DNA of 64,000 bases from an uncultured Lentisphaerota bacterium (GTDB lineage: Bacteria > Verrucomicrobiota > Kiritimatiellia > RFP12 > UBA1067). Positions 3,139 through 40,914 of this stretch are shown here, piece by piece. The notes below the pieces were generated by a model, which was not told the DNA's origin, ran no database searches, and saw nothing but the letters and a program-made list of their open reading frames with translations. The stretch's first letter is position 1. Each line of letters opens with the position of its first letter. The translations under genes and the position numbers were made by a program. Where the stretch lies: NCBI GenBank assembly GCA_900320225.1, contig ONRL01000003.1:48509-112508 (forward strand), written 5' to 3'.

Positions 3139-3281
3139 TAATCACGAGATACAATGAAATACTCGAAGAAGGCTTTTCATCAAAATGGGTTTCTTGAAAT
3201 TGAAATCTACATCTTCTCGCCTTCATACTTCCATCCTGAAAGAACCTTCAAATGCGTGCACCACAAGTGTAGGAGAATGTG

Positions 3282-4304
3282 ATGAACATGAATACCACTA
3301 TGTCAGAATCATACCGATTTACTGGGCAAACAGGAAGAATCCACGATTGCGGCATTGATTTCTTGATGTTTATTGCCGTTTTGCTTGTTGTCAATTCTCA
3401 TTTGGATATAATGTATCCTGGGCGATTAAAATTTCTGGCTACTGGTGGAATATTTGGGGACGCCTTGTTTTTCTTTTGTTCTGGCTACAAACTATTTTTG
3501 AAAAAGCCCGGTAGATTTGATAACTGGTATAAAAGGAGAGTTGTTCGTGTATACCCTTCAATAGTTGTATGGGATGTAATGGTTGCAATTATCTTTTCGT
3601 TACCTTTCTCAATCTTGAATCTTTTTGATGGGTGGAGACCAAACGGATATTGGTTTGTGAAATGTATTATGTTTCACTATATTGGAATCTATCTTATCCA
3701 AAAATATATGATCAACCAGCTTAAGCTGATGATTTTTGCCGTATTTGCAGGCGTTTTTGTATGGTGGTTGACGGCCTATTCTCCAGAATTCGCTAATGCG
3801 ATGTTAAGTGCACCGAAGTTTCAGTGGTACTATATGTTCATATTCACGCTAGCGGGTGCGATTCTTAGAAAACATTCGCATATTAAGTTTAGATTATGGA
3901 TGGCAATGCTCTTTTCTTTTTCGATGTTTTGCTATTATGGTTTCCTTAAATGCGTTGACTTGTTTCCCATCATTACACCATTGCGAGTGCTGGTTATTTT
4001 GCCAATGTTTGGGGTGATATATGGCTTCTTTCTGATTTCAAGAAGTGATGCGGTAACGAAATTGATGAATACTAAGGGGGGAGCGGTTTTGAAGTTTTGT
4101 GGTGCTCTTTGCCTTGAAGTATACATTAGTCATGATGTCCTCTTGACCGGCGAATATAATCATCTATTTCCTCTTAATATTATAGTATATTTTTTCTTAG
4201 TATTTCTTTTGGCATACATAGTTCGTTGTGTAACGAGGTGTTTAGTTCAGACCTTCAACTTAGATAAGCCTTATGATTATGGGGCGATTTTAGGGAGAGA
4301 ATGA
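3282..4304 (+). CDS. acyltransferase family 3 (membrane O-acyltransferase)
   Basis: Multi-pass hydrophobic protein with an N-terminal DxLxxxAxxxVVxxH-like segment (DFLMFIAVLLVVNSH). AGGAG lies 6 nt before ATG 3282. AT-rich. Confidence 0.65.
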   Translation: MNMNTTMSESYRFTGQTGRIHDCGIDFLMFIAVLLVVNSHLDIMYPGRLKFLATGGIFGDALFFFCSGYKLFLKKPGRFDNWYKRRVVRVYPSIVVWDVMVAIIFSLPFSILNLFDGWRPNGYWFVKCIMFHYIGIYLIQKYMINQLKLMIFAVFAGVFVWWLTAYSPEFANAMLSAPKFQWYYMFIFTLAGAILRKHSHIKFRLWMAMLFSFSMFCYYGFLKCVDLFPIITPLRVLVILPMFGVIYGFFLISRSDAVTKLMNTKGGAVLKFCGALCLEVYISHDVLLTGEYNHLFPLNIIVYFFLVFLLAYIVRCVTRCLVQTFNLDKPYDYGAILGRE

Positions 4305-4346
4305 GTGGGAGCGCTCGTGATAGCAAGTAGGGAGACACAATGGGAA

Positions 4347-4426
4347 GGTCTGGTTTCTTGTTTCGTATAGCAACCCTAAGCCCGAGCCTCGAATCCCTAA
4401 ACTAGAAACCAGAAACTAGAAACTAG
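4347..4426. repeat. GTTTCTGG/CCAGAAAC-word hairpin upstream of galE
   Basis: GGTCTGGTTTCTTGTTTCG ... CTAGAAACCAGAAACTAGAAACTAG; the core TCTGGTTTC pairs with GAAACCAGA. Confidence 0.5.
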
Positions 4427-7862: not shown

Positions 7863-7940
7863 GGGGAGTGTTGCCAATGTGCAAGTGTTGCCAGTTTCCA
7901 GTGTTACCAATTTCCAATTGAGTGAGGGCTGTTGGGGCGC

Positions 7941-8130
7941 GGGCAGAAGCGGCAAGAGTGCCGCTTCTCCGAGGTGCGGCGCGTTGGTGTGCGCGGGCGA
8001 GGTCGCCCGCGCTTTTTTGTGGGGTGTGGGAGGACGTGGGACGGACGTAGGACGTAAGACGTAGGACTTTGGTTGCTTTGGGGGAGCCCGTAAGGCAGGA
8101 CAAAGTCTTACGTCCTACGTCTTACGTCCT
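7941..8130 (+). repeat. composite intergenic element, copy 1
   Basis: Same module order as copies 2 and 3: hairpin GAAGCGGCA-AGAG-TGCCGCTTC, a GC-stem/T-run terminator, then a long inverted repeat with GACGTAR-word arms around the conserved loop TTGCTTTGGGGGAGCCCGTAAGGCAGG. Confidence 0.85.
7991..8018 (+). terminator. intrinsic terminator within composite element copy 1
   Basis: GCGCGGGCG-loop-CGCCCGCGC followed by TTTTTT. Confidence 0.75.
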
Positions 8131-8563: not shown

Positions 8564-8752
8564 ATGAGGATAATAACGGATGAATATAGAGAGCAATTGC
8601 TGAAAAACAGGGTGTATCAGATGATTGTCAATACACCTAAGCCGGATTTTACTCAGTTGGACAAGGAAGTCGCTGAGTTTGAGGAGTGGATTGCGCAAGA
8701 ACATAAAAAGGAGCGCGAGGCGAGGTTGGCGCACGGAGCGAGTGCAAGATGA
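8564..8752 (+). CDS. small protein, candidate antitoxin of the downstream GNAT toxin
   Basis: 62 aa with a strong AAAGGAG SD before ATG 8564. Its stop overlaps the next ATG (ATGA at 8749-8752). No recognisable DUF1778 motif, so the role is inferred from context only. Confidence 0.45.
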   Translation: MRIITDEYREQLLKNRVYQMIVNTPKPDFTQLDKEVAEFEEWIAQEHKKEREARLAHGASAR

Positions 8753-9324
8753 AAATAGACGCTCTCAATTTGAATACTGAACATTTTACGGTCGAGCATT
8801 TGCAGAACACTCCTGCGAATCGCCGGTTGATTGAGAGCTTTTCCGCACCAAACAATGCTATGGGGCTTGAAGCGTACCTAAAGTTACAGGCCGAGAGCGA
8901 TGAGAACAGCAATGGAAGCAGGACTTTTCTCGTAAAGGACGCGGAGACGGGACGGTTGGCTTGTTATTTCTCGTTGCGGTCAGGTCTAATAGCGATACGG
9001 CGCGAAGATGATTTGTTTGACACTATCCCAGCCATAGAGCTAGCGAATTTCGCTGTTAACGATACCTATCGTTCGGAAAGCGGCAAGGTCGCAAAGGTCG
9101 GAGCTTATGCTTTTAGACGTTTTGTGCAACCTATAGTGAAGAATGTTTCAGACCTTGTGGGCGTTCAATGCCTGTATATCTATGCATTGCCAAAGGAAAG
9201 ACTGATTCAGTACTACGCTTCACTTGGTTTCATGCGCTTACCAAGTGAGGATGAGGCTTTTGTGCACAGCCATGTCAAGCCGGCTTATGATAGAGGGTGC
9301 ATTTTCATGTATCAGGGGATTTGA
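8749..9324 (+). CDS. GNAT-family acetyltransferase, TacT-like toxin candidate
   Basis: GNAT core pattern IELANFAV...G..GAYAF...LYIYALP..RLIQYYASLGF. Translationally coupled to a small upstream ORF. AT-richer than its surroundings. Confidence 0.6.
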   Translation: MKIDALNLNTEHFTVEHLQNTPANRRLIESFSAPNNAMGLEAYLKLQAESDENSNGSRTFLVKDAETGRLACYFSLRSGLIAIRREDDLFDTIPAIELANFAVNDTYRSESGKVAKVGAYAFRRFVQPIVKNVSDLVGVQCLYIYALPKERLIQYYASLGFMRLPSEDEAFVHSHVKPAYDRGCIFMYQGI

Positions 9325-9367: not shown

Positions 9368-9557
9368 GGGCAGAAGCGGCAAGAGTGCCGCTTCCCCGAG
9401 GTGCGGTGCGTTGGTGTGCGCGGGCGAGTTCGCCCGCGCTTTTTTTTTGTGGGAGTGGGAGGGCGTGGGAGGGACGTAGGACGTAAGACGTAGGACTTTG
9501 GTTGCTTTGGGGGAGCCCGTAAGGCAAGCCAAAGTCTTACGTCCTACGTCTTACGCC
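9368..9557 (+). repeat. composite intergenic element, copy 2
   Basis: Near-identical to 7941-8130 when aligned by eye. Lies after the GNAT toxin gene. Confidence 0.85.
9418..9448 (+). terminator. intrinsic terminator within composite element copy 2
   Basis: GCGCGGGCG-AGTT-CGCCCGCGC followed by nine T. Confidence 0.8.
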
Positions 9558-9570
9558 CTGAAAGGGGATG

Positions 9571-9630
9571 AGGACAAAGGACAGAGGACAAAAGACAAAG
9601 GATTTAGGACTTCGGACATTGGGACAGAAA
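9571..9630. repeat. GGACARAG-word tract
   Basis: AGGACAAAGGACAGAGGACAAAAGACAAAGG..., the same word family as 16521-17762. Confidence 0.6.
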
Positions 9631-9711: not shown

Positions 9712-9720
9712 TGCTATAAT
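9712..9720 (+). promoter_or_regulatory. extended -10 promoter (TGcTATAAT) upstream of the Fic gene
   Basis: Perfect TATAAT with TGn, 27 nt before ATG 9748. Confidence 0.5.
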
Positions 9721-11483: not shown

Positions 11484-11667
11484 GGGCAGAAGCGGCAAGA
11501 GTGCCGCTTCCCCGAGGTGCGGCGCGTTGGTGTGCGCGGGCGGGTTCGCCCGCGCTTTTTTGTGGGGTGTGGGAGGACGTGGACGGACGTAGGACGTAAG
11601 ACGTAGGACTTTGGTTGCTTTGGGGGAGCCCGTAAGGCAAGCCAAAGTCTTACGTCCTACGTCTTAC
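11484..11667 (+). repeat. composite intergenic element, copy 3
   Basis: Near-identical to copies 1 and 2. Lies after the Fic gene. Confidence 0.85.
11534..11561 (+). terminator. intrinsic terminator within composite element copy 3
   Basis: GCGCGGGCG-GGTT-CGCCCGCGC followed by TTTTTT. Confidence 0.75.
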
Positions 11668-11688
11668 CTCCTTTGTTGAATCTGCCAG

Positions 11689-11767: not shown

Positions 11768-13612
11768 ATGAGACGAGTTTGTTCGCTGTGCGCGTCGGTG
11801 TCTTTTGCATTCCTGTCTGCCGTCGCCGCAGGCCCGACGATTCAGACCGCCGATTTCACGGGTGCGGAGCCGCCTGCCGGGTGGACGGTGGCGAACGGCG
11901 AGTACCGTTCGCCCGAATACGCGGGCGCCGTTGATAAAATCGTCCTTTGTTATGCCGGCTCAGGCGCTTCCGCCTCCGCCACGGTACACGCATTTCCGGC
12001 GAATGAAGAGGGGGTGAACGTTGCAACGTTCACGGCAGCATCCTCTGGCGCGTCGTTCGACTTCCCCGAGTCCACCGCGTTCCGTTCGTTTCGCATCGCC
12101 GCTGCAAACGGCCTTGCGCTCTCGTCTTTCACGGCGTACGTCGCGTCGGATTCGCTGGATGTTCCGTCGGGGGTCTTGATATCGAACAACGTCACGGGCA
12201 CTTCGTTCGACGCCGCGTGGAACGCCGTCGAAGGCGCGACGGGATACCGTGTCTACGTGTGGACGAACGCCGTCACCGGCGCATCGGCGGGAACGACGGT
12301 TTGGCAAGAGACGTTTGCGAACTCCCCCGCGAAGACCACGACGGTCAACTTCAAGGACGAATTCACGGACTACGGTACTTCAGGTTGGGAATACAGCAAA
12401 GCCTACGCCTCGATTTCCTACGGGGCCGTCAGAATCGGCACGACATCCGACAAGGGTTACCTCGTTTCGCCGCCGTTAACGCATGTTTCTGGATCGGGAC
12501 TCGCTCTCCGCATCACGGCGTGGCGGCAGACCACGGGTGATGGAACGGACATGCCTGTCGGCGTGGTGTCCGGCGGGGTGACGAACATCGCGGGTGTCGT
12601 TGCGCTGGGCGATGAGCCCGCCACGATCCATGTGGCCTTGCCGACGTTCAATTCCGGAGACAGAATTGCGATCTTCTCTCCGACGAACAAATCGTCCGCT
12701 CGCGTGATCGTCGATGACGTCGCGGTTCTGTCCGGTTATTCCGCCGGACATCCCGAGCCGTTGTACATCGTCAACGGCCTTGATGTCGGCGCGGCGACCG
12801 CGCATTCGTTCAGCGGACTGCCGCCCGTTCCGGTTTCCTTCGCGGTCGAGGCGTACGGTCGCCGCGGCGTGTCGTCGGAAACGACGGAGGCCGTGGTTGT
12901 CGATCTTGCGAATCCGGACCCGGTTCCCGTCCTGAACGCCTGTCCGATGTCGTCCCTTGCGGGTAACATTTATCACCAGAACTTCAATGGCACCGCGGCG
13001 TTGACGTCCTCGTCGGGCGACAAGGATCTGCTGAACGGCACGACGGTTCTGTACTGGCAGTGGTTCAAGAACGCCTTGGCGGCCGGCACATTCAAGTGGA
13101 ATGCCGGATCGGGCACGACGGGTGGAATCTATGCGCTGGCCACGAATCAGAGCGAGACGGTGCGTTCAATCGGCGCTTATTCGACGAAGGACAACGAGTT
13201 CTCCTTTGGCATTGCGTTTACCAACGACACAGGCAAGGCAATGAAGTTGGTCTCGCTTGCCTATCTCTCGCAGCAGTGGGGATTCAAGAACTCCACCAAC
13301 CAGACGCTTTCGGTCGCCGTCAAGGTTGTGGACAACCTTGACTGGATTTCTGCCTACGTGGATGGTTGGACGGAACTGGCTTCGAAGGAATCCGACGTGT
13401 ATGGCACAGGGGATCCCCACGATACGCCGGTCTCCACGTCCGTCCCGGTCAATCCGGAAGGGGGCATTCCCATCGCCCCCGGTCAGGTGTTGATGCTCAA
13501 GTGGACGATCCATTCGCTGAAGGGCGGTACGCCCGGCATGATGGGCATCGACGACGTGACCGTGACGTTTCAGGGGTCGGTCGGGTTGTCCATCAGGATC
13601 GCCGGTTGGTGA
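11768..13612 (+). CDS. secreted protein with fibronectin type III-like domain, function unknown
   Basis: AAGGAGG SD 9 nt before ATG 11768 and signal-like N-terminus MRRVCSLCASVSFAFLSAVAA. FN3-like segment NVTGTSFDAAWNAVEGATGYRVYVW. The stop codon lies within the hairpin-element flank. Confidence 0.6.
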   Translation: MRRVCSLCASVSFAFLSAVAAGPTIQTADFTGAEPPAGWTVANGEYRSPEYAGAVDKIVLCYAGSGASASATVHAFPANEEGVNVATFTAASSGASFDFPESTAFRSFRIAAANGLALSSFTAYVASDSLDVPSGVLISNNVTGTSFDAAWNAVEGATGYRVYVWTNAVTGASAGTTVWQETFANSPAKTTTVNFKDEFTDYGTSGWEYSKAYASISYGAVRIGTTSDKGYLVSPPLTHVSGSGLALRITAWRQTTGDGTDMPVGVVSGGVTNIAGVVALGDEPATIHVALPTFNSGDRIAIFSPTNKSSARVIVDDVAVLSGYSAGHPEPLYIVNGLDVGAATAHSFSGLPPVPVSFAVEAYGRRGVSSETTEAVVVDLANPDPVPVLNACPMSSLAGNIYHQNFNGTAALTSSSGDKDLLNGTTVLYWQWFKNALAAGTFKWNAGSGTTGGIYALATNQSETVRSIGAYSTKDNEFSFGIAFTNDTGKAMKLVSLAYLSQQWGFKNSTNQTLSVAVKVVDNLDWISAYVDGWTELASKESDVYGTGDPHDTPVSTSVPVNPEGGIPIAPGQVLMLKWTIHSLKGGTPGMMGIDDVTVTFQGSVGLSIRIAGW

Positions 13613-13700
13613 GGACGTAGGACGCAAGACGTAGGACTTTGGTTGCTTTGGGGGAGCCCGTAAGGCAGGCCAAAGTCTTACGTCCTACGTCTTACGTCCT
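13601..13700. repeat. GACGTAR-arm long hairpin, copy 4 (between convergent genes)
   Basis: GGTTGGTGAGGACGTAGGACGCAAGACGTAGGACTTTGG - loop - CCAAAGTCTTACGTCCTACGTCTTACGTCC. Contains the stop codons of both flanking genes. Confidence 0.85.
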
Positions 13701-14868
13701 TTCCAGGACCGTCGCGTAGCGCGGCAATGAGGCGCGTACGGTCGAACAGCTCTTCGGAGAGCTGGCGGGCACGGGCACCGCACGCGGGGCCCGCGCCGCG
13801 TTTGATGAGCTCCGCCATGCGGCGGAAGGCGTCCGCGATGGCGTCGAGGTCGTCCGGAGGCGCCGTCACGCCGAGCTGGTGTTCCTCGATGAGCTCGCGC
13901 GCGTCGCCGAGGAGGATGCCGAGGATCGGCTTGCCGGTCTTGATGTAGCTCTGGAACTTCCCCGGCAGGGTGAGCTGGTATTCCGGCGTGAGGGAGATGA
14001 TGAGCGCGTCCGCCTGCGCGAACCAGCGCGGCATGTCCGCCTTCGGCTGGCGTCCGTGGAACACGGCGCGCGCGCCGGAGGCGGCTGCCTTTTCCTTGAG
14101 GTGCTCGAGCTGCACGCCGCCGCCCACGAAGTGGAGTTCCGCGTCGGGGATGTCCGCGCGGGTGAAGCCCTCGAGGACGTTGTCGAGGTCCTGCGGCACG
14201 CCGAGGTTTCCCGCGAACATGAAGACGAGCCCCGCGTGCGGCGGCGCGGGGGGGAGTTCCATCGGCGCGGGGTCCCACTGCGGCACGAATTCGGCCTCGC
14301 GCCTGCAAAGCTCGCGGATGCGCGGCACGAACCCGCGGCAGCTCACGCAGATGCGGTCGCAGCGCTTGTAGATGCGGCGCACGAACCAGTTGAGGAGCGC
14401 CTCGCGGAAGCGCGTGCGCCGGAAGCCGAACCCCCATACGGCGTCCGGCCAGAGGTCCTGGGTCCAGATCGCGGTGGGCTTGCGCCAGACGGTCTTGAGC
14501 GCGAAGAGGGCGCTCGCCATCGTGAGGGCGGCCGTGTGGTACACGAACACGCGGTCGTACTTGCGCCCGTTCCAGAGCGCCCACCAGAACGTCATCCAGC
14601 CGAAGTGGAGGTAGTTGAGCACCTTGCGCTTCACGCTCGTGTTGTAGCCGAAGATGGTGCTCACGCGGTGGACGGGGATGTCGAGGTACTCGCGCGTGGT
14701 CTGGTAGGCCTTGTTCTTGTAGCCGTCGTAGACGCGGTCGAAGGGGTAGCTGGGCACCTGGGTGAGCACCTCCACCTCGTCGCCGAGTCGTTTCCACTCC
14801 GCGACGAGGTCGTTCACGAGGAAGTCCTCGGGGTAGAACCGCTCGACGATGACCAAGATTTTGCTCAT
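13678..14868 (-). CDS. glycosyltransferase family 4, WcaI-like
   Basis: N-terminus MSKILVIVERFYPEDFLVNDL...QVPSYP is typical of WcaI-type GT4 enzymes. The C-terminal codons and stop lie in the arm of hairpin element 13601-13700. Confidence 0.75.
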   Translation of the reverse strand: MSKILVIVERFYPEDFLVNDLVAEWKRLGDEVEVLTQVPSYPFDRVYDGYKNKAYQTTREYLDIPVHRVSTIFGYNTSVKRKVLNYLHFGWMTFWWALWNGRKYDRVFVYHTAALTMASALFALKTVWRKPTAIWTQDLWPDAVWGFGFRRTRFREALLNWFVRRIYKRCDRICVSCRGFVPRIRELCRREAEFVPQWDPAPMELPPAPPHAGLVFMFAGNLGVPQDLDNVLEGFTRADIPDAELHFVGGGVQLEHLKEKAAASGARAVFHGRQPKADMPRWFAQADALIISLTPEYQLTLPGKFQSYIKTGKPILGILLGDARELIEEHQLGVTAPPDDLDAIADAFRRMAELIKRGAGPACGARARQLSEELFDRTRLIAALRDGPGKDVRRRT

Positions 14869-14878
14869 GGGAGCAAAT

Positions 14879-14887
14879 AGTATAGCA
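14879..14887 (-). promoter_or_regulatory. extended -10 promoter (TGcTATACT on minus strand), 10 nt before ATG 14868
   Basis: Reverse complement of AGTATAGCA. Confidence 0.45.
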
Positions 14888-14902
14888 TATTTCGGGGGGA
14901 TG

Positions 14903-14968
14903 GAGGACGTGGGACGTAAGACGTAGGACTTTGGCTGCTTTGGGTGAGCCCGTAAGGCGGGCCAAAGG
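14903..14968. repeat. GACGTAR-arm hairpin, copy 5a (left arm plus loop only)
   Basis: Left arm and conserved loop are present; the right arm is replaced by GGCTAAGCGG leading into copy 5b. Confidence 0.7.
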
Positions 14969-14970
14969 CT

Positions 14971-15070
14971 AAGCGGTTGGTGAGGACGTGGGACGTAGGA
15001 CGTAGGACTTTGGCTGCTTTGGGGGAGCCCGTAAGGCGAGCCAAAGTCTTACGTCTTACGTCCTACGTCC
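14971..15070. repeat. GACGTAR-arm long hairpin, copy 5b
   Basis: Shares the GGTTGGTGAGGACGT left flank with copy 4, and has full arms and loop. Confidence 0.85.
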
Positions 15071-15108
15071 TTGTCCCACGGTCCCACGCCTTTCCTAAAA
15101 GTTACCCC

Positions 15109-15137
15109 TTGCGCATGCCAATGGGGTGTGATAAACT
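15109..15137 (+). promoter_or_regulatory. promoter TTGCGC-17-TGaTAAACT driving the structured RNA and RNA ligase
   Basis: -35 at 15109-14, extended -10 at 15129-37. Confidence 0.45.
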
Positions 15138-15143
15138 AAGCCC

Positions 15144-15422
15144 ACCTGCCCGGAATTGATGCCGTCGATGCGGCTATACGGGGGCAGGCGTCCGGACGGG
15201 ACCCATGCCTGGCGTGCATGGGATCCTCTTGGGCCGGGTAGCGAGTTCATCCGCTGAAAAACGCGGATTGCCCGAAAGGGTTGGCGAGGCAGGGCCTATT
15301 CCTGACCATGCAGAGCTGTTTCTGCGTGGGGTTACTGCTGGTGCGGCGTCACTGTCGAGTGGCGAGGATGCCGCATGGCGGCCGCAAGGCCGTTTCAACA
15401 GAGTAACGACAGGAGTATCTCA
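15144..15422 (+). ncRNA. candidate structured leader or ncRNA upstream of RNA ligase
   Basis: Promoter 15109-15137 predicts a TSS near 15144. No credible ORF. Nested helices and two GNRA tetraloop hairpins are visible (CCC-GAAA-GGG 15271-15280; GGCC-GCAA-GGCC 15380-15391), along with a long-range pair GTTACT 15331-36/AGTAAC 15402-07. Confidence 0.35.
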
Positions 15423-16520
15423 ATGAGAAAACTGGCATCCCTGGTGGAGATCGCCTCGTGCGATCCCATCCCCGATACGGAACGGCTTTCCGTGGCAACA
15501 ATGAAAGGCAAGGGCTGGCGCGTAGTCACCGGCCGCGGCGAATTCGCGTCCGGCGACAAAGCGGTATACTTCGAAATCGACAGTTATCTTCCGCCGGACG
15601 ATGAACGCTTTGCGTTCCTCCGTGAACGGTGCCTTCGCAAGTTCGTGTCAAAGAGCGGCAGCGTGCTGCGCGAGGGGTTCCGTATCAAGACGGCGAAACT
15701 TCGCGGCGTCGTGTCGCAGGGGCTACTCATGCCTCTCGCGGCTTTCCCCGAGGCAAATGGGCTGGAGGTGGAGGCGGACCTGACCGATCTGCTGAAAGTC
15801 GACCACTACGACGAAGTGAAGGAACAGCTTCAGCCCGCCATGGGGAATCCGCTGAACTCCGACGCGATGGGGGCGTTCCCATCGTACATTCCAAAGAGCG
15901 ACGAGGAACGGCTTCAGGGGTTGACCGAGTACTTCACGTCGCTGAAGGGGCGCCGCTTTGAGATCACGGCGAAGGACGACGGTTCGTCCGCGACGATGTT
16001 CTTCTCGCCGACGATCGATCCCGAGGAACCGTTCGGTGTCTGTTCGCGGAACCTGCGTCTGAAGCGTCCGGTGGAAGGGGGCGTCGTCTCGGCGTTCTGG
16101 CAGACTGCCGTGAAATACGACATCGAGGCGAAGCTCAGGAAGTTCTTCGAGGAATCGCACCTTGAAATCGCCTTGCAGGGCGAATTGGTCGGCCCTGGGA
16201 TCAACGCCGACCGGGACCGTTATTCGGAATACGAATTCCACGTCTTCAGGATCTGGGACGTGTGCGCGCAGCGTTTCATGATGCCGCGCGACCGCGTGGC
16301 GTTCTGCGCGAAGTTCGCGATCCCGCATGTACAGGTGCTGCACGAGGATTTCCCGTTCTTTGACAAGGTCACGACGATGGACGCCGCGCTCAAGTTCGCC
16401 GAGGGCAAGACCCTGCGGGGCAACGAGCGCGAGGGGATCGTGCTGAAGGCTTCTGATGGGCTTGACGACACGCACTTCAAGGTCGTGTCGAACAGGTACT
16501 TGCTGAAGCAGCAGGATTGA
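15423..16520 (+). CDS. ATP-dependent RNA ligase, Rnl5/DRB0094 (DraRnl-like) family
   Basis: N-terminal OB-like module (VEIASCDPIPDTERLSVATMKGKGWRVVTGRGEFASGDKAVYFEIDS) followed by nucleotidyltransferase motif I AKDDGSS. AGGAG lies 7 nt before ATG 15423. Confidence 0.75.
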   Translation: MRKLASLVEIASCDPIPDTERLSVATMKGKGWRVVTGRGEFASGDKAVYFEIDSYLPPDDERFAFLRERCLRKFVSKSGSVLREGFRIKTAKLRGVVSQGLLMPLAAFPEANGLEVEADLTDLLKVDHYDEVKEQLQPAMGNPLNSDAMGAFPSYIPKSDEERLQGLTEYFTSLKGRRFEITAKDDGSSATMFFSPTIDPEEPFGVCSRNLRLKRPVEGGVVSAFWQTAVKYDIEAKLRKFFEESHLEIALQGELVGPGINADRDRYSEYEFHVFRIWDVCAQRFMMPRDRVAFCAKFAIPHVQVLHEDFPFFDKVTTMDAALKFAEGKTLRGNEREGIVLKASDGLDDTHFKVVSNRYLLKQQD

Positions 16521-16627
16521 GGACAGAGGACAGAAGACGGAGGACAGAGGATGACAGGACAAAGGACCTTGGACAATGGGACGCGCGAAGCGACGGGTCT
16601 TTGTCTTTTGTCTTTCGTCCTCTGTCC
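16521..16627. repeat. long imperfect hairpin with GGACARAG-word arms, 'empty' copy
   Basis: GA-rich left arm 16521-16568, loop TTGGACAATGGGACGCGCGAAGCGACGGG 16569-16597, CT-rich right arm 16598-16627. Confidence 0.75.
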
Positions 16628-16638
16628 TAAAACGAGAA

Positions 16639-16758
16639 AGGACAAAGGACAGAAGACGGAGGACAAAAGATGTTAGGACAAAGGACAGAAGACGGAGGAC
16701 AAAAGATGTTAGGACAAAGGACAGAAGACGGAGGACAAAGGATGTTAGGACAAAGGAC
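16639..16758 (+). repeat. 36-bp tandem repeat (3.3 copies) of GGACARAG words
   Basis: AGGACAAAGGACAGAAGACGGAGGACAAAAGATGTT at 16639, 16675 and 16711, with a partial fourth copy running into the loop motif at 16760. Confidence 0.85.
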
Positions 16759-17542
16759 TTTGGACAATGGGACGCGCGAAGCGACGGGATCATTCCGGAT
16801 CATTGGCCATTATGGCGGGTATCGGAAGATGTACTCCTTCGGGTTCACGTGTCTCGTGTACCACGCAACGACGTTATTCTGCAAGCGCAACTTCAACTAC
16901 AGGAACGACGCTCTCGGCAAGACCGTGGGACAGATGGTCGGTGCCGCTCGGAGTGCGCGCCAGAACATCGTCGAGGCGTCGAGCCGCGCTGCGACGTCCA
17001 AGGAGCAGGAGCTACGACAGCTAGATGTCGCGAAGGGCTCGCTTGACGAGTTGGCCGGCGACTACGAAGTGTTCCTCGTGGATGCGGGCGAGGCGCCGTG
17101 GTCGCAGTCCGACGAACGTTATCAGACGGTCAAGGCGCTGAAACTGGACGCCTTCGACGCAACGGACGATCTTGACCATGAGTTCGGGGAATACATTCTG
17201 GCGATGCGACGGCGCTGTGCCGAGTGGCTTGAGAACGAAGACCCTCTTGTCGCTGCGAATGCCATCCTGATCACGATCCGCAGGGCCGCCGCGTTTTTGA
17301 AGGGCCAGATGGACAAGACGGCCGATGCGTTTCTTGAAGAAGGCGGTTTCACCGAACGGATGAGCCGTGCGCGAATCGTGGCACGTGACGAGAAGACGCG
17401 CGCGAACCATGGCGACACGCCGAAATGTCCGCGCTGCGGACGCAATCTCCGCAAGATGGTGGCACGCAAGGGCCGCAACGCGGGGAACGAGTTCTGGGGA
17501 TGTTCCGGCTATCCAGAGTGCGACTTCACGCGGAACGTGTGA
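16742..17542 (+). CDS. four-helix-bundle protein (23S rRNA IVS-protein family, suffix-domain type) fused to a C-terminal topoisomerase-type C4 zinc ribbon
   Basis: GGYRKMYSF...GQMVGAARSARQNIVEASSRAATSKEQELRQLDVAKGSLDELAGDYEVFL matches the four-helix-bundle family pattern. The C-terminus CPRCGRNLRKMV...FWGCSGYPECDF is a Topo-type Zn ribbon. The start is uncertain because the N-terminal codons lie in 36-bp tandem repeats. Confidence 0.6.
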   Translation: MLGQRTLDNGTREATGSFRIIGHYGGYRKMYSFGFTCLVYHATTLFCKRNFNYRNDALGKTVGQMVGAARSARQNIVEASSRAATSKEQELRQLDVAKGSLDELAGDYEVFLVDAGEAPWSQSDERYQTVKALKLDAFDATDDLDHEFGEYILAMRRRCAEWLENEDPLVAANAILITIRRAAAFLKGQMDKTADAFLEEGGFTERMSRARIVARDEKTRANHGDTPKCPRCGRNLRKMVARKGRNAGNEFWGCSGYPECDFTRNV

Positions 17543-17568
17543 ACCGCGGCAAGGCGCTGGCTCTCCGG

Positions 17569-17762
17569 CCTTTGTCTTTTGTCCTTTGTCCTCCCGACTT
17601 TGTCTTTTGTCTTCTGTCTTCTGTCCTGAAGGGGAAAGAGGACAGAGGACAAAGGACAGAAGACAAAGGATGGGACAGAGAACAAAGGACAGAGGACAAA
17701 GGATGAGACGAGAGGACAGAGGACAGAAGACAAAGGACAGAGGACAAAGGACCTTGGACTTT
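17569..17762. repeat. CT-rich arm, short loop and extended GGACARAG-word tract after the four-helix-bundle gene
   Basis: CCTTTGTCTTTTGTCC... 17569-17626 is complementary in type to the GA arms. Local hairpin with 17640-17670. Ends in GGACAAAGGACCTTGGAC. Confidence 0.75.
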
Positions 17763-17775
17763 GGGCCCTAAAATG

Positions 17776-17784
17776 TGGTATACT
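17776..17784 (+). promoter_or_regulatory. extended -10 promoter (TGgTATACT), 7 nt before fnlA ATG 17792
   Basis: The spacing implies a leaderless or near-leaderless mRNA. Confidence 0.5.
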
Positions 17785-17791
17785 ATAACCC

Positions 17792-18811
17792 ATGTTTGAC
17801 GACAAAGTGCTTTTGATTACCGGCGGGACGGGTTCGTTCGGCCACGCCGTGCTGCAGCGGTTCATCAACGACTTCCGCGAGATCCGCATCTTCTCCCGCG
17901 ACGAGAAGAAGCAGGACGACATGCGCCACGAGCTGCAGAACGACAAGGTGAAGTTCTACATCGGCGACGTGCGCGACCGCGCGAGCGTGGACGGCGCGAT
18001 GCGCGGCGTCGACTTCGTGTTCGCCGCAGCCGCCCTCAAGCAGGTGCCGAGCTGTGAGTTCTTCCCTCTTGAGGCCGTGCGCACAAATGTGATTGGCACG
18101 AACAACGTGATTGAGAGTGCCGTCGCGAACGGCGTCTCCCGCGTGGTGGTGCTCTCCACCGACAAGGCCGCCTACCCCATCAACGCGATGGGGATGTCCA
18201 AGGCCCTCATGGAGAAGGTCGCCATCGCCAAGGGACGCGCCCTCGGCCCGAACGCCCGCACCACGATCTGCTGCACGCGCTACGGCAACGTGATGGCGAG
18301 CCGCGGGAGCGTGATCCCGCTCTTCATCGAGCAGATCAAGGCCGGCAAGGACATCACCGTGACCGATCCCGAGATGACGCGCTTCATGATGACCCTCGAG
18401 GAGGCCGTGGACCTCGTCCTCTTCGCCTTCGAACACGGCGTGAACGGCGACCTCTTCGTGCAGAAGTCCCCCGCGGCCACGATCGGCGTCCTCGCCCAGG
18501 CCATCCTCGAGCTGAGCGGGTCGAAGTCGAAGATGCAGGTGATCGGCACGCGCCACGGCGAAAAGAAGTTCGAGACGCTCGTGACGCGCGAGGAGATGGC
18601 CAAGGCGATCGACATGGGCGCCTACTACCGCATCCCCGCCGACACGCGCGACCTCAACTACGACAAGTACTTCGTCGAGGGCCGCACGATCGCGCCGACG
18701 GTCGAGGACTACGACTCGAACAACACCGAGCGCCTGGACGTGCCGGGGATGAAGAAGCTTCTCCTGAAGCTCGCGTGCGTGCGCGAGGCGTTCGGCCTTG
18801 ACAACGCATAA
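17792..18811 (+). CDS. fnlA: UDP-N-acetylglucosamine 4,6-dehydratase/5-epimerase (CapE/FnlA/WbjB)
   Basis: Near-colinear similarity to S. aureus CapE as recalled: MFDDK.LLITGGTGSFG...IFSRDEKKQDD...FYIGDVRD...AAALKQVPSCEFFP...STDKAAYPINAMG.SKA.MEK. Confidence 0.9.
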   Translation: MFDDKVLLITGGTGSFGHAVLQRFINDFREIRIFSRDEKKQDDMRHELQNDKVKFYIGDVRDRASVDGAMRGVDFVFAAAALKQVPSCEFFPLEAVRTNVIGTNNVIESAVANGVSRVVVLSTDKAAYPINAMGMSKALMEKVAIAKGRALGPNARTTICCTRYGNVMASRGSVIPLFIEQIKAGKDITVTDPEMTRFMMTLEEAVDLVLFAFEHGVNGDLFVQKSPAATIGVLAQAILELSGSKSKMQVIGTRHGEKKFETLVTREEMAKAIDMGAYYRIPADTRDLNYDKYFVEGRTIAPTVEDYDSNNTERLDVPGMKKLLLKLACVREAFGLDNA

Positions 18812-27816: not shown

Positions 27817-27916
27817 CCAGTAACCCTTTACCGAGTTGAGTGTAGCCAAGGCGGAAAGGAACGGATGTCATGAGCGGCATAAACTCTTTGAGCGGACTCA
27901 TGTTGCCGGTTTCCAA

Positions 27917-27960
27917 TGTTGCCAATTTCCAATTGGTATTGGGTATTGGAATTGGCAACA
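27917..27960. repeat. TTGCCAAT/TTCCAAT-word hairpin
   Basis: TGTTGCCAATTTCCAAT ... ATTGGAATTGGCAACA (one bulge). A related one-armed tract lies at 7866-7920, and related words lie inside the DUF89 CDS around 40170-40200. Confidence 0.6.
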
Positions 27961-28013
27961 TTTCCACATTGGCAACATTCATCAGCCTAGAAGCATAAGG
28001 AGCAGCAAAGACA

Positions 28014-37552: not shown

Positions 37553-38919
37553 CTGAACAAACGAGAAAGGCGTTCCTGCGCGGGCAGCGGCGGATGCTGG
37601 TGATGACGATCATCGGCTACACGCTGTTCTATTTCTTGCGCAAGAACCTGTCGCTCGCCATGCCGGGGCTCGCGCAGGACTACGGCATCACCAAGACCAC
37701 GCTCGGCATCTTCCTCACGCTGCATGGCGTGGTGTACGGTTTGGGAAAGTTCGTGTGCGGGCCGCTTTCGGACAGGAGCCGTCCGCGCTGGTTTCTGATG
37801 GGCGGCCTCGCGCTCGCGACGCTGGCGAACGTGATGTTCGGGTTCGGGCCGGTTCTCGCCGCGCTTGTCTCCGGCGGCGCGGATGGCGCGGCGTTCACGA
37901 CGACGCTCGTGACGGTGCTGGGAATCGCGTGGGTCGCGAACGGCCTCTGCCAGGCGACGGGCAATCCGCCGTGCCTCAAGTTGCTCTCCCACTGGGTGCC
38001 GCCGAACGAGCTGGCCACGAAACTCGCCATCTGGAATTCGTCGCACTCCATCGGCGCGGGAATCATCACGATCCTCTGCGGCTACATCATGGGGCTGGGC
38101 GCTCTCGGGGCCGATGGCGTGGGCATAGGGATGTGGAAGTGGTGCTTCTGGGCGCCGGCGATTATTGCGGCGGTGGGATTGGTGGCGCTGTGGGTGTGGC
38201 TGCCGGGCACGCCGGAGGAGGAGGGGATGGGAGGGTCGCGCTCCTGCGCGACCGCCGCCGAGACGGCGGCTCCCCATGCGGACGCGCAGCAGCGCGTTCC
38301 TCCCGCCGACACCGCCCTGCGGCGCGTGTACCTGAACCCGGTGATCTGGATGGTGGGGCTTTGTTGTTTCATGGTTTATCTCACGCGTTTCGCGATTCTC
38401 GACTGGGGGCCGATGCTCATGAAGGAGGCGAAGGGCGTGTCCCTTGCGGGCGCGGGCTGGACAGTGGCCTGCTTTGAGGTTGCCGGAATCCTCGGCACGC
38501 TTTTCTCTGGCTGGGCGACGGATCGCCTGGCAGGCGGCCGCGCGCCGCGCGTGTGTCTCTTCATGATGCTCGGCGCGGCGGCTTTCATGGGAGCGTTCTG
38601 GCTGATTCCTGCGGGGAGCTCCGCGATCCTCTACGTCGCGGCGTTGTCGGGCGCGGGGTTCTGCATCTACGGTCCGCAGGCCATGACCGGCACGACGGCC
38701 GTCAACATCGCGACTCGCCGCTTTGCGGGGACGGCCGTGGGATTCACGTCGCTCTTCTCTTACGGGAGCGTCCTCTTCAGCGGATGGGGCATGGGTTTTC
38801 TCGCGGAGCGGACGGGCGGCTGGGCCGTGCCTTTCCTTTCCGTTGTCGTGGCAACGGTTGTGGGCGCGGGGCTGTTCGCGCTCTTATGGAAAACAAAACC
38901 GAACGGATACGATGTATGA
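37549..38919 (+). CDS. MFS organophosphate:phosphate antiporter (GlpT/UhpC family)
   Basis: N-terminus FYFLRKNLSLAMP...GKFVCGPLSDR is typical of GlpT/UhpC, with 12 TM-like segments. ATGA overlap with the rnd stop. The central loop carries a palindromic insert at 38229-38304. Confidence 0.75.
   Translation: MTEQTRKAFLRGQRRMLVMTIIGYTLFYFLRKNLSLAMPGLAQDYGITKTTLGIFLTLHGVVYGLGKFVCGPLSDRSRPRWFLMGGLALATLANVMFGFGPVLAALVSGGADGAAFTTTLVTVLGIAWVANGLCQATGNPPCLKLLSHWVPPNELATKLAIWNSSHSIGAGIITILCGYIMGLGALGADGVGIGMWKWCFWAPAIIAAVGLVALWVWLPGTPEEEGMGGSRSCATAAETAAPHADAQQRVPPADTALRRVYLNPVIWMVGLCCFMVYLTRFAILDWGPMLMKEAKGVSLAGAGWTVACFEVAGILGTLFSGWATDRLAGGRAPRVCLFMMLGAAAFMGAFWLIPAGSSAILYVAALSGAGFCIYGPQAMTGTTAVNIATRRFAGTAVGFTSLFSYGSVLFSGWGMGFLAERTGGWAVPFLSVVVATVVGAGLFALLWKTKPNGYDV
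38229..38304. repeat. palindromic module pair inside the MFS transporter central loop
   Basis: GGGAGGGTCGCGCTCCTGCGCGACC ... GGCGGCTCCCCAT GCGGACGCGCAGCAGCGCGTTCCTCCC. Encodes GGSRSCATAAETAAPHADAQQRVPP. Confidence 0.8.
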
Positions 38920-39905: not shown

Positions 39906-40914
39906 GCCGTGCCTCGCGCGGAACGCGACGGAGCTGGCGCGCCGGTCGGCGCGCGGCGACGCGGCGCTGGAAGGGCGCATCGCAGCCGAGGGGATGCGCA
40001 TCCTCGGGCGCGCGGCGGAGGAGGGCTACACGCTCCCGCCGCCGTGCTACGCGCGCCAGCTCATCGACAACGCGCTTGCGATGTGCGACGGCGCGGTACC
40101 CGATCCGTGGGCGGAGGAGAAGAGGAAGTCCACGGAGCTGGCGCTGAAGCTGGTGGAGAGGATGGGATTGTTCACAAATGACAATTGCCACAATTGTTCA
40201 CCAATCGCAAATATAAATCTCAGTACGGGAGGGACGCGCTCCTGCGCGTCCGTTGCGGTCGCGCAGGAGCGCGACCCTCCCGACATGTCCGAATTCGAGA
40301 AGCGGCTGCGGCTTGCCATCGCCGGGAACATCCTCGACTTCTCCATCTACGCCGACCTCGACATCGCGGCCGCGATGGAGACGATGAAGGAGGCGTTCAC
40401 GAAGCCGATTTGCGGCACTCTTGCCGCTTCATCCGCTGACGCGCAGGAGCGCGTCCCTCCCAGTGACATTGTCGTCGAGCTGAAACGGCGCATGGACGCG
40501 GCGAAGTCGATTCTGTGGATCTTCGACAACTGCGGCGAGGCGGTGTTCGACCGTCTGCTGATCGAGCCGTACCGCGAGAAGATCACGCTTGCCGTACGCG
40601 GCAAGCCCGCGTTCAACGACCTTACACGCGCCGAACTTGCCGAAAGCGGCTATCCTGAGGGATTCGCCGCAGGAGGCGTCGTCTCAAATGACGATGGCGT
40701 GCCGGGGGTGGTGGACGCCACGTGCGGCGATGCGTTCCGCGCGGCATTCTCGCGGGCGGATCTGATTGTCGCGAAGGGGCAGGCGAACTTCGAGACGATG
40801 AGCGATCGTACGGACAAGCCGATTGCGTTCCTCTTCCTCGCCAAGTGCCCCGTCGTATGCCGCGAAGTGGGCGCGCACCCCCAGACGATTCAAGTCATTC
40901 TCCGTAATTTCTGA
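39883..40914 (+). CDS. DUF89/ARMT1-like damage-control phosphatase family protein
   Basis: N-terminal CLDCLPCLARNA and C-terminal KGQANFETMSD motifs of DUF89. TTG start lies inside the GTTTGAT word repeat. Two in-frame repeat insertions are present (about 40170-40281 and 40412-40461). Confidence 0.6.
   Translation: MKACLDCLPCLARNATELARRSARGDAALEGRIAAEGMRILGRAAEEGYTLPPPCYARQLIDNALAMCDGAVPDPWAEEKRKSTELALKLVERMGLFTNDNCHNCSPIANINLSTGGTRSCASVAVAQERDPPDMSEFEKRLRLAIAGNILDFSIYADLDIAAAMETMKEAFTKPICGTLAASSADAQERVPPSDIVVELKRRMDAAKSILWIFDNCGEAVFDRLLIEPYREKITLAVRGKPAFNDLTRAELAESGYPEGFAAGGVVSNDDGVPGVVDATCGDAFRAAFSRADLIVAKGQANFETMSDRTDKPIAFLFLAKCPVVCREVGAHPQTIQVILRNF
40227..40281. repeat. inverted pair of palindromic modules inside the DUF89 CDS
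   Basis: GGGAGGGACGCGCTCCTGCGCGTCC-GTTGC-GGTCGCGCAGGAGCGCGACCCTCCC. The two halves are near-perfect reverse complements. Confidence 0.8.
40412..40461. repeat. second repeat insertion in the DUF89 CDS
   Basis: GCGGCACTCTTGCCGCTTC is the reverse complement of the intergenic GAAGCGGCAAGAGTGCCGC module. It is followed by GACGCGCAGGAGCGCGTCCCTCCC. Confidence 0.75.

Follow-up and report, generated by a model that had tools for sequence, protein, structure and literature searches.

A four-helix-bundle gene and its enclosing heptanucleotide-word arrays as a candidate small mobile element outside ribosomal RNA genes

A 64,000-nucleotide stretch of DNA from a rumen Kiritimatiellae bacterium (hereafter the window, the whole stretch analysed) carries, between an RNA ligase gene and fnlA, a four-helix-bundle gene bounded on both sides by arrays of 7-nt words. 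We interpret positions 16639-17627 as a full-length small selfish element, composed of an open reading frame (ORF) of this protein family and terminal inverted repeats (TIRs) of 7-nt words, and positions 16521-16628 as a tandem, gene-less, internally deleted copy. We assign this reading a probability of roughly 0.7. An earlier note, made from the letters of the window, had seen in the two an empty and an occupied version of one hairpin and had suggested that hairpin plus ORF may be mobile in its own right. Comparison with other loci strongly supports such a mobile unit, on a wider scale than first proposed: arm words follow protein clade, homology ends at hairpin ends, and whole blocks are polymorphic at four operon junctions. 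Arms and gene form a unit; they diversify together and turn up in unrelated contexts.

Strain comparison had been recommended in the earlier note. Plain four-helix-bundle genes with their two arms are present in one replicon and absent from another at operon junctions that have tiny spacers and flanks 86-98% identical. In a Trb operon (flanks 97.5-98% identical) the site is occupied in Trichormus variabilis and empty in Nostoc PCC 7120 plasmid pCC7120beta and at least six other plasmids. The occupied junction reads ...AAAAAGTAAT, then a 428-nt arm-ORF-arm block ending in GTAAT, then TAACAAATAA..., with GTAAT duplicated; when empty, the site is a hairpin-free spacer of 13 nt. A decayed remnant, consisting of the left arm and a truncated ORF start, occupies the same site in Nostoc sp. 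C052 plasmid pC052_E (NZ_CP040277.1, ~78.17-78.31 kb; L117, L-numbers being our labels of compared loci). Across Nostocales plasmids one Trb junction is thus found empty, occupied and decayed.

The same pattern recurs elsewhere. Between cmr2 and cmr3, Picosynechococcus PCC 7003 is occupied and plasmid pAQ6 of PCC 7002 is empty (flanks 90% identical); between nrdB and nrdA, Nostoc edaphicum is occupied and Calothrix NIES-4105 is empty (86%). A Nostoc conjugative operon (flanks ~92-94% identical) has two such sites. Site A is occupied in Nostoc C052 plasmid pD and empty in two Nostoc ATCC 53789 plasmids. Site B, at the next junction, is occupied in Nostoc ATCC 53789 pNsp_c by a different four-helix-bundle element with AAGGGGA-type arms (L120, NZ_CP046706.1) and is empty in Nostoc C052 pD and Nostoc ATCC 53789 pNsp_b, where the junction is a TAATG stop/start overlap. 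TIRs lie at the ends of the inserted block at the Trb, site A, site B and nrd junctions. Because the arms come and go with the ORF, and the empty site has no hairpin at any of the four mapped polymorphic sites (4/4), the arms belong to the element. The compactness of the empty junctions (the TAATG overlap, and spacers of a few to ~40 nt) suggests insertion rather than precise deletion.

Enclosing arms are widespread around plain genes. At L032, found by scanning all fetched loci, a 127-aa plain family member (TIGR02436, 119 bits) sits inside a 40-nt, 98% complementary, word-like inverted repeat with 449 nt between the arms; homologues were then taken from other genomes, with plasmids of cultured bacteria as an independent sample. 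A copy between fliQ and fliR in a Kiritimatiellae-type flagellar operon (L091) has 35-nt arms of 8-nt words that are 100% complementary. Enclosing word arms also occur in Bacteroidales, Desulfomarina, Nostoc, Calothrix, Picosynechococcus, Geminocystis, Leptolyngbya and Riemerella, and the groups with arm-enclosed plain genes are Cyanobacteria, Bacteroidota, Desulfobacterota and Kiritimatiellae. When the 130 nt on the upstream side are compared with the 130 nt on the downstream side, the best complementarity score reaches at least 12 for 13 of 15 plain genes, compared with 2 of 53 neighbour genes (Mann-Whitney p=4e-7), and both of those controls adjoin a four-helix-bundle element. The arms are of 7-nt words that vary by case (GGGAGTA, GGGTGTA, CAGGAGT, AAGGGAA, GGAGATA, CAAGGTT). 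The genes usually lie co-directionally in conserved operons (fliQ/fliR, cmr2/cmr3, cas6/cas4, serC-like/serA-like, Trb genes), the nrdB/nrdA copy being on the opposite strand. The upstream arm has more G than C in 16 of 16 elements (p=3e-5), most with GGAG/AGGA-type words. It is usually a source of Shine-Dalgarno-like words, and in the window of the start codon as well. Since the G-rich arm is always the upstream one, arm polarity goes with the ORF, which would be expected of an arm that serves the transcript.

The window's gene is of the suffix type, which we surveyed at 58 loci in species-representative genomes of Kiritimatiellae. Period-7 word arrays flank these genes, mostly as hairpins on both sides. 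A strong hairpin occupies 32 of the 77 gaps adjoining suffix-type genes and 3 of 46 other gaps (p=2e-5, with crude gene calls). Each of the words GGACARA, GGACTTC, GAGACGN, GCGACAT and GGGACTT is associated with one protein clade. The 10 loci of the window's clade show 8 distinct upstream and 8 distinct downstream contexts, and the 10 loci of clade 9 show 8 and 10, respectively. At three loci in different species-level genomes (L039, L049 and L050), ~95% nucleotide identity stops at the outer hairpin ends, and limits of homology also coincide with terminal repeats at L035 and L029. Because word type follows clade, contexts differ and homology ends at hairpin ends, we conclude that gene and arms travel together. 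Within single metagenome-assembled genomes (MAGs) the paralogues seen are divergent only (L015 and L048 in one MAG).

These distributions bear on the view that the word hairpins are generic intergenic repeats of the genome, of the kind of repetitive extragenic palindromic (REP) sequences, bacterial interspersed mosaic elements (BIMEs) or sequences of the short tandemly repeated repetitive (STRR) type. The gene would then merely lie in a recombination-prone glycan cluster, and a 29-nt duplication described below would reflect local slippage. In favour of this view, a GGACGTA-word family forms six hairpins between other accessory genes at 8-15 kb without a four-helix-bundle gene, the Tle1-like gene of L001 is likewise bracketed by hairpins, arms are interchangeable with strain-variable array length, and block order varies by strain. 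Yet hairpins are enriched beside four-helix-bundle genes, their words match protein clade over unrelated contexts, the same architecture recurs with quite different words in other phyla, and the whole unit is present or absent as a block. We therefore regard generic repeats as quite an unlikely explanation.

Within the window, where all features discussed here are on the plus strand, the gene-less copy (hairpin A, 16521-16628) begins directly 3' of the RNA ligase stop codon (16518-16520). Its left arm (16521-16567) is made of period-7 words of the GAGGACA type. Its loop (16569-16597) is the 29-mer TTGGACAATGGGACGCGCGAAGCGACGGG, which holds a GCGCGAAGCG mini-stem and recurs letter for letter at the 5' end of the element's ORF region. 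Its right arm (16598-16628), recognised by inverted repeat and fold, is an array of CT words. As RNA, hairpin A folds with -52.8 kcal/mol (z=-6.35; equally good shuffles 0/200) and as DNA with -24.8 kcal/mol (z=-4.65), and the duplex of its GA arm (GA-A) with its CT arm reaches -47.6 kcal/mol (z=-4.5). The 29-mer has exactly two copies in the 64 kb, with up to three mismatches allowed, and a match arises in 0/100 shuffled controls. Each copy is preceded by the arm end GGACAAAGGAC(C/T), and the 78-nt blocks 16520-16597 and 16711-16788 are 94% identical.

The full-length element opens with its left arm, GA-B (16639-16758), a tandem of a 36-nt unit in 3.3 copies with 98% matches at period 36. The second 29-mer (16760-16788) is translated, in frame with an ORF that ends at 17542, and encodes ..LDNGTREATG.. 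within a disordered N-terminal extension. The coding sequence of 266 aa is placed at 16742-17542 after the start of the public gene call, TTG at 16760 or the upstream ATGs being possible alternatives. After a spacer (17543-17562) comes the right CT-word arm (17563-17627), recognised by inverted repeats and by pairing with the GA arrays; 17549-17592 is 75% identical to the right side of hairpin A. A further GA-word array, GA-C (17633-17759), has no downstream CT partner, pairs locally with the preceding CT arm and ends in CTTGGACTTTGGG just 5' of a -10-like box of fnlA (TGGTATACT, 17776-17784). The earlier note's description of the locus is upheld throughout: a simple-word hairpin with a 29-nt loop, a duplicated 29-mer with a shared arm end, a second copy that runs into four-helix-bundle coding sequence, and a CT-word arm that returns after the gene's stop. 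Hairpin A is best explained as the left arm, the first 29 nt of the interior and the right arm of the element.

Close relatives suggest how such a copy could form. At L015, from a goat-omasum MAG, the protein is 99% identical and the layout the same; at L090, a cattle-rumen contig, the FnlA, RNA ligase and glycosyltransferase family 4 (GT4) proteins are identical to those of the window, layout and spacing are unchanged, and the public gene call is of 266 aa. The L011 protein, from another sample and MAG, is 94% identical. A single 36-nt unit, together with the gene-less and the gene-bearing hairpin in tandem, is found at L011, L015, L017, L075 and L080. Both the RNA ligase gene and the gene-less hairpin are absent from L016 and L010. 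Downstream of the gene, L016, L017, L010 and L075 carry the right part of the loop a second time, as GGAACG[C/T]GCGAAGC[A/G]CCGG (GGGAAGCGCGAAGCACCGG in L075), ahead of the CT arm. The window's post-stop spacer is homologous to the spacer ahead of this second loop-motif copy (DR2) in L016 and L017, and DR2 itself has been lost in the window. Deletion between these ~20-nt direct repeats would regenerate the gene-less hairpin exactly.

The window's lineage thus shows, among strains, an indel of RNA ligase and hairpin A as well as a change in block order. The notion of versions of one hairpin element with and without the gene is supported, with one correction. The shared arm and 29-mer and the flanking ~20-nt repeats speak for two versions of one element; the 'empty twin', however, is best taken as a copy that lost its gene and not as an unoccupied target, because empty target sites carry no hairpin. 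RNA ligase homologues (76-79% identity) that lack a four-helix-bundle neighbour are followed by an ordinary terminator or an abutting gene and have no word hairpin, which argues that the hairpin belongs with the four-helix-bundle gene. An arrangement of RNA ligase and hairpin with no gene was sought and not found: the RNA ligase homologues have the terminator or abutting gene just mentioned, and contigs with identical FnlA share the same neighbours. A direct FnlA search did not confirm fnlA-like flanks at L018 and L019.

A second explanation, the earlier note's empty-versus-occupied reading taken literally, reverses the order of events: the hairpin would be a pre-existing host structure into whose apical loop the gene inserted, with elements targeting hairpin tips as intervening sequences (IVSs) replace helix tips of 23S ribosomal RNA (rRNA). 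The ~20-nt loop-motif repeats that flank the gene in L016, L017, L010 and L075 are what a target duplication would leave, tandem gene-less hairpins occur in the window (14904-15071), L038 and L059, and IVSs do replace helix tetraloops (PMC4990558). STRR heptamers have also been placed inside an RNase P RNA gene, according to the title of Vioque 1997 as cited in PMC2858038. Set against this, all four mapped plain sites are empty without a hairpin and the arms move with the ORF, arm word type follows protein clade, RNA ligase homologues with no adjoining four-helix-bundle gene lack such a hairpin, and no free-standing 29-mer hairpin appeared in a Joint Genome Institute (JGI) metagenome scan. Insertion into a hairpin tip is therefore unlikely in our view.

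In the full-length element, each 36-nt unit of GA-B carries GGAGGA and an in-frame ATG (16670, 16706, 16742), and homologues mostly start just 3-6 residues ahead of the conserved IIGHYGGYRK; in the window's lineage the arm therefore lends the gene a ribosome-binding site, a start codon and an N-terminal tail. One could read this as regulation. The arrays would then be contingency (phase-variation) or regulatory repeats: their copy number would tune how the four-helix-bundle gene is translated and the downstream fnl sugar operon transcribed, and the protein would be a domesticated regulator, not the product of a selfish gene. In keeping with this, the unit is present in 3.3 copies versus 1 between proteins that are 99% identical, a Shine-Dalgarno sequence and ATG stand in every unit, GA arrays lie just 5' of promoter-like boxes of fnlA and the Fic gene, and in Haemophilus influenzae a transcribed heptamer tract folds into an RNase III-cut hairpin by which HMW1A expression is set (PMC12721329). 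The array words are, however, mixed and not perfect repeats, which lowers slippage rates, the 36-nt expansion preserves the reading frame, and block presence/absence in other phyla and the enclosing inverted repeats are left unexplained. We consider a contingency role very unlikely to account for these arrays.

The gene product combines several domains. The profile search gave 50.0 bits for the TIGR04258 'suffix' domain (cut-off 40), a marginal 24.9 bits for the TIGR02436 four-helix-bundle core (cut-off 24), and 40 bits for a topoisomerase I-type zinc ribbon (PF01396), which in the window's subfamily we take to be of the single-strand-binding type. PF05635 of Pfam scored 24.5 bits, under its gathering score of 33.8, so that family membership rests on the two NCBIfam models and the fold. 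The AlphaFold model (mean predicted local distance difference test score, pLDDT, 77.8) is helical with a C-terminal ribbon. Residues 1-22, encoded by the arm and the 29-mer, have pLDDT <50 and are predicted to be disordered. The top Foldseek matches in the PDB are structures of the S23/IVS family, 2gsc (Xcc0516) and 2rld (BT_0352, S23 family); the match to 2gsc has a TM-score to target of 0.77-0.79 and probability 1.0, but an E-value of only 0.04. A PDB sequence search with the element's protein returned nothing significant. The two profiles and the two folds together support the assignment to the four-helix-bundle family that the earlier note had made. A defence-system role and a phage origin were considered and set aside, as PADLOC gave no match to the four-helix-bundle protein and no relative turned up in viral contigs.

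The sole factor that the element encodes is this four-helix-bundle protein, joined in the window's subfamily by the zinc ribbon. We envisage that the block inserts between co-directional genes and would be transcribed together with the host operon. In the transcript the arms may pair as a 25-45 bp stem around the ORF and sequester its ribosome-binding site, by analogy with ORF-containing 23S rRNA IVSs. Such a stem would be a likely natural substrate of RNase III, as in the IVSs of Coxiella and Leptospira (PMC4990558) and the hmw 5' untranslated region hairpin (PMC12721329), and the cut could free the element's RNA and reduce polarity in the operon. Gene-less hairpins would form by deletion between short direct repeats inside the element.

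In the window the pairing on which this scheme depends is feasible. GA-B with the CT arm after the gene reaches -88.6 kcal/mol (z=-8 against shuffled purine/pyrimidine arms), and inverted-repeat pairs are 76-92% complementary. The same CT arm with GA-C is equally good (-90.4 kcal/mol). In the global minimum-energy fold of 16500-17800 the CT arm pairs locally with GA-C and the CT arm of hairpin A pairs with GA-B. Because all GA and CT arrays are mutually compatible, a gene in the loop of a long hairpin, as the earlier note pictured it, is a possible structure, with arm pairing well beyond that of shuffled arms, and yet not the predicted ground state. No U-run follows the hairpins read in the window and its close relatives, so these are not ordinary terminators. 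No Rfam family, rRNA included, reached its gathering score anywhere in the window, and a permissive scan of 7.8-18 kb gave, at the hairpins, sub-threshold matches to generic microRNA-precursor models, which reflect hairpin shape only.

Several observations weigh against a selfish element of the kind proposed. Just described is the minimum-energy fold, which leaves the gene unenclosed. On the protein side, no match to a transposase of a known class (DDE, HUH, serine or tyrosine) was found in the element, where the domains are the four-helix bundle, the suffix and Zn_ribbon_Top1. Target duplications are short and differ between sites: the Trb site has GTAAT (5 nt), site B has ATG, and site A and nrd are ambiguous, beside the ~20-nt loop-motif repeats around the gene in L016 and L017. 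No transposition or excision event has been observed, and the direction of change, insertion, is deduced from junctions and not from phylogeny. Most suffix-type genes in Kiritimatiellae have a complete hairpin on each side and not one arm on each side, so that the simple model needs an extra assumption, either tandem gene-less copies or arm duplication. The 29-mer hairpin turned up solely beside this gene lineage. In a degenerate scan of JGI metagenomes the matches were to the arrangement of RNA ligase, hairpin and gene, to a single L018-like locus and, by chance, to three places in coding DNA, and the idea of the 29-mer hairpin as a dispersed repeat is not borne out. In a direction other than that of the arm polarity, among 62 distinct hairpins there is no excess of G.U-compatible mismatches on the sense strand (58 vs 49, p=0.44), and selection on RNA pairing is accordingly not demonstrated. 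Finally, the samples are small, partly related and not phylogenetically independent.

The broader importance of a mobile hairpin-plus-ORF unit lies in the family to which it belongs. Thousands of proteins of this family bear the annotation 'four helix bundle protein' or 'S23 ribosomal protein' and lack an assigned function. To our knowledge, the sole relative with a known role is Avd, which acts as accessory protein in diversity-generating retroelements. Where ORF-containing 23S rRNA IVSs come from, and how mobile they are, has been an open question since the early 1990s. As judged from aligned genomes, the hairpin-plus-ORF architecture occurs outside rRNA in several phyla and is present or absent as a whole at operon junctions that have been mapped precisely. 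This appears to be a general property of a large protein family that has seemingly gone undescribed outside rRNA. We found no literature linking non-rRNA four-helix-bundle genes to enclosing word-array repeats or insertion polymorphism; subscription journals were mostly not covered, so an earlier description is possible.

The old question of IVS origin thus becomes testable, as cultured, tractable strains hold the occupied, empty and decayed states of one site, and pairs such as Trichormus variabilis and Nostoc PCC 7120, or Picosynechococcus PCC 7003 and PCC 7002, can be compared. A possible origin is also offered for simple-word intergenic hairpins, STRR-like repeats included. A more far-reaching proposal, possible though doubtful, is that four-helix-bundle genes (PF05635/TIGR02436) with word-array arms form a widespread unrecognised class of mobile elements. 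The sole protein would direct insertion into inter-cistronic spacers and hairpin tips, and 23S IVSs, many orphan word hairpins (for example the six of the GGACGTA family) and part of the STRRs would be full-length, decayed or gene-less copies. Elements of this kind can also be flagged as a cause of assembly breaks in metagenome bins and of mis-called N-termini. Many four-helix-bundle homologues and some RNA ligase homologues were seen only on contigs barely longer than the gene; this would loosely fit assembly breaks at word arrays, and at best hints at them in a collection whose median contig is ~1 kb.

The surroundings of the element are those of a glycan (O-antigen-like) gene cluster of mosaic G+C, with LicD, GT4, acyltransferase, GT2 and Wzy genes followed by FnlA/B/C-type genes. 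Mean G+C in the window is 62.5%, and segments of 37-44% at 1200-2000 and 3200-4400 take in genes for LicD-like and acyltransferase proteins, a pattern to be expected where parts of a surface-glycan cluster are exchanged horizontally. The RNA ligase gene (TIGR02306/PF09414) at 15423-16520 is preceded by a non-coding leader of ~290 nt (15125-15415, plus strand) that is near-invariant in five strains whose flanking genes are ~90% identical. This leader has a fold z of -3.46, a promoter-like box upstream and no Rfam match, and is a candidate structured RNA; in L016 it adjoins the four-helix-bundle element directly. The block of leader, RNA ligase, gene-less hairpin and four-helix-bundle gene lies downstream of a minus-strand GT4 gene in the window (13678-17791), L015 and L090, and upstream of the GT4 gene in L017, L080 and L082-84, a rearrangement bounded by word arrays.

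Other repeats and accessory genes share this cluster. The second word family, with GGACGTA/AGACGTA arms, forms hairpins at 8043-8129, 9475-9555, 11585-11671, 13612-13700, 14904-14975 and 14983-15071. All six have the loop core GGGAGCCCGTAAGGC and the same orientation and lie between accessory genes, and three are preceded by a repeated module of ~100 nt with a terminator-like GCGGGCGAGGTCGCCCGCGCTTTTTT. The six hairpins are possible gene-less relatives of a further four-helix-bundle element subfamily. Partnerless GA-word arrays at 9568-9623, 17633-17791 and, on the minus strand, 14868-14900 have TTGGACNNTGGG-like words at their ends, and extended -10-like boxes come next, near start codons: TGCTATAAT for the Fic gene (9712-9720), the fnlA box given above, and TGCTATACT for GT4 (14879-14887, minus strand). 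These features suggest transcripts with almost no leader and, for some arrays, a role close to the promoter. An insert in the glycan cluster at 8564-9324, made up of a small ORF and a 191-aa ORF without family match, is possibly a toxin-antitoxin pair, and the Fic-domain accessory gene at 9748-11259 matches the SoFic defence model (PADLOC, 3.5e-24). Farther along, the repeat family GGGAGGGTCGCGCTCCTGCGCGACCG forms inverted repeats at 38229-38304, 40226-40282 and 41639-41783, and 41667-41783 is also a perfect tandem array (30 nt x 3.9). The 16-mer AGTGTTGCCAATTTCC is tandem at two distant sites, 7867-7916 and 27900-27962, the second of which includes a small palindrome.

The element resembles several known systems in part. 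TAACTGA heptamers form direct repeats just 5' of start codons in Beggiatoaceae, Cyanobacteria and Bacteroidetes, with a proposed post-transcriptional role (PMC4679880). They share with our arms the heptamer unit, the spread over several phyla and the position near start codons, but they are single-word direct repeats with no complementary partner array and no enclosed four-helix-bundle gene reported. In the 5' untranslated region of H. influenzae hmw1A, an (ATCTTTC)n array of variable length is transcribed and makes one of the two arms of a long hairpin, which RNase III cuts (PMC12721329). That tract regulates a host gene, encloses no ORF and is not mobile, and its right arm is no repeat array. 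Intergenic palindromes of the REP and BIME type can stabilise messenger RNA, and REP doublets (REPINs) form long hairpins mobilised as units, as reported in PMC3333891 and PMC3116915. The likeness is of intergenic palindromic or hairpin repeats moved as units. REPs, however, are short palindromes of conserved sequence, which a Y1/HUH enzyme, the REP-associated tyrosine transposase (RAYT), moves in trans, whereas here heptad arrays of 30-120 nt accompany an unrelated ORF of their own; no RAYT/Y1 transposase is present among the 21 window proteins scanned.

Cyanobacterial STRRs are tandem 7-bp intergenic units capable of forming hairpins, for example between hupS and hupL (PMC2670836). Arms of the cyanobacterial elements look like such arrays, and the window has period-7 arrays and hairpins in a Kiritimatiellae host; the likeness is of form only. 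In the literature found, STRRs are treated as a repeat class by themselves and are not tied to four-helix-bundle genes. Integron cassettes were rejected, as the hairpin ends GGACAGAGG... and ...CCTCTGTCCT lack the RYYYAAC...GTTRRRY cores of attC sites and no integrase is among the proteins scanned in 1-23 kb. In its working the element is like a small TIR transposon with derivatives akin to miniature inverted-repeat transposable elements (MITEs). Like MITEs and small TIR transposons, the elements have TIRs, insert as blocks and show short duplications at some junctions, and gene-less derivatives keep the ends, as in hairpin A and the L117 remnant. In contrast to them, the elements have no recognisable transposase and inconsistent target duplications, their TIRs are low-complexity and subfamily-specific, and insertions fall precisely into tiny inter-cistronic spacers.

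The closest known thing is the ORF-containing 23S rRNA IVS, and the link of the protein family to these sequences, as stated in the earlier note, is documented (PMC4990558). In Coxiella the IVS has a 28-bp terminal stem around an S23p ORF and is cut by RNase III; proposals reviewed for IVSs are that they are remnants of transposition, or that the ORF serves mobility (PMC4990558). The IVSs of Leptospira and Coxiella burnetii share with the window's element an ORF of the S23p/PF05635 family inside a long terminal stem, are sporadic and are regarded as selfish (PMC4990558). The window's element differs in lying between protein-coding genes of a glycan cluster and not in an rRNA helix (9, 25 or 45), and since it is not in rRNA it falls outside the location that defines an IVS. 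Its arms are tandem 7-nt words, its protein has added suffix and zinc-ribbon domains, and excision by RNase III, established for IVSs, is for this element a behaviour predicted from the analogy.

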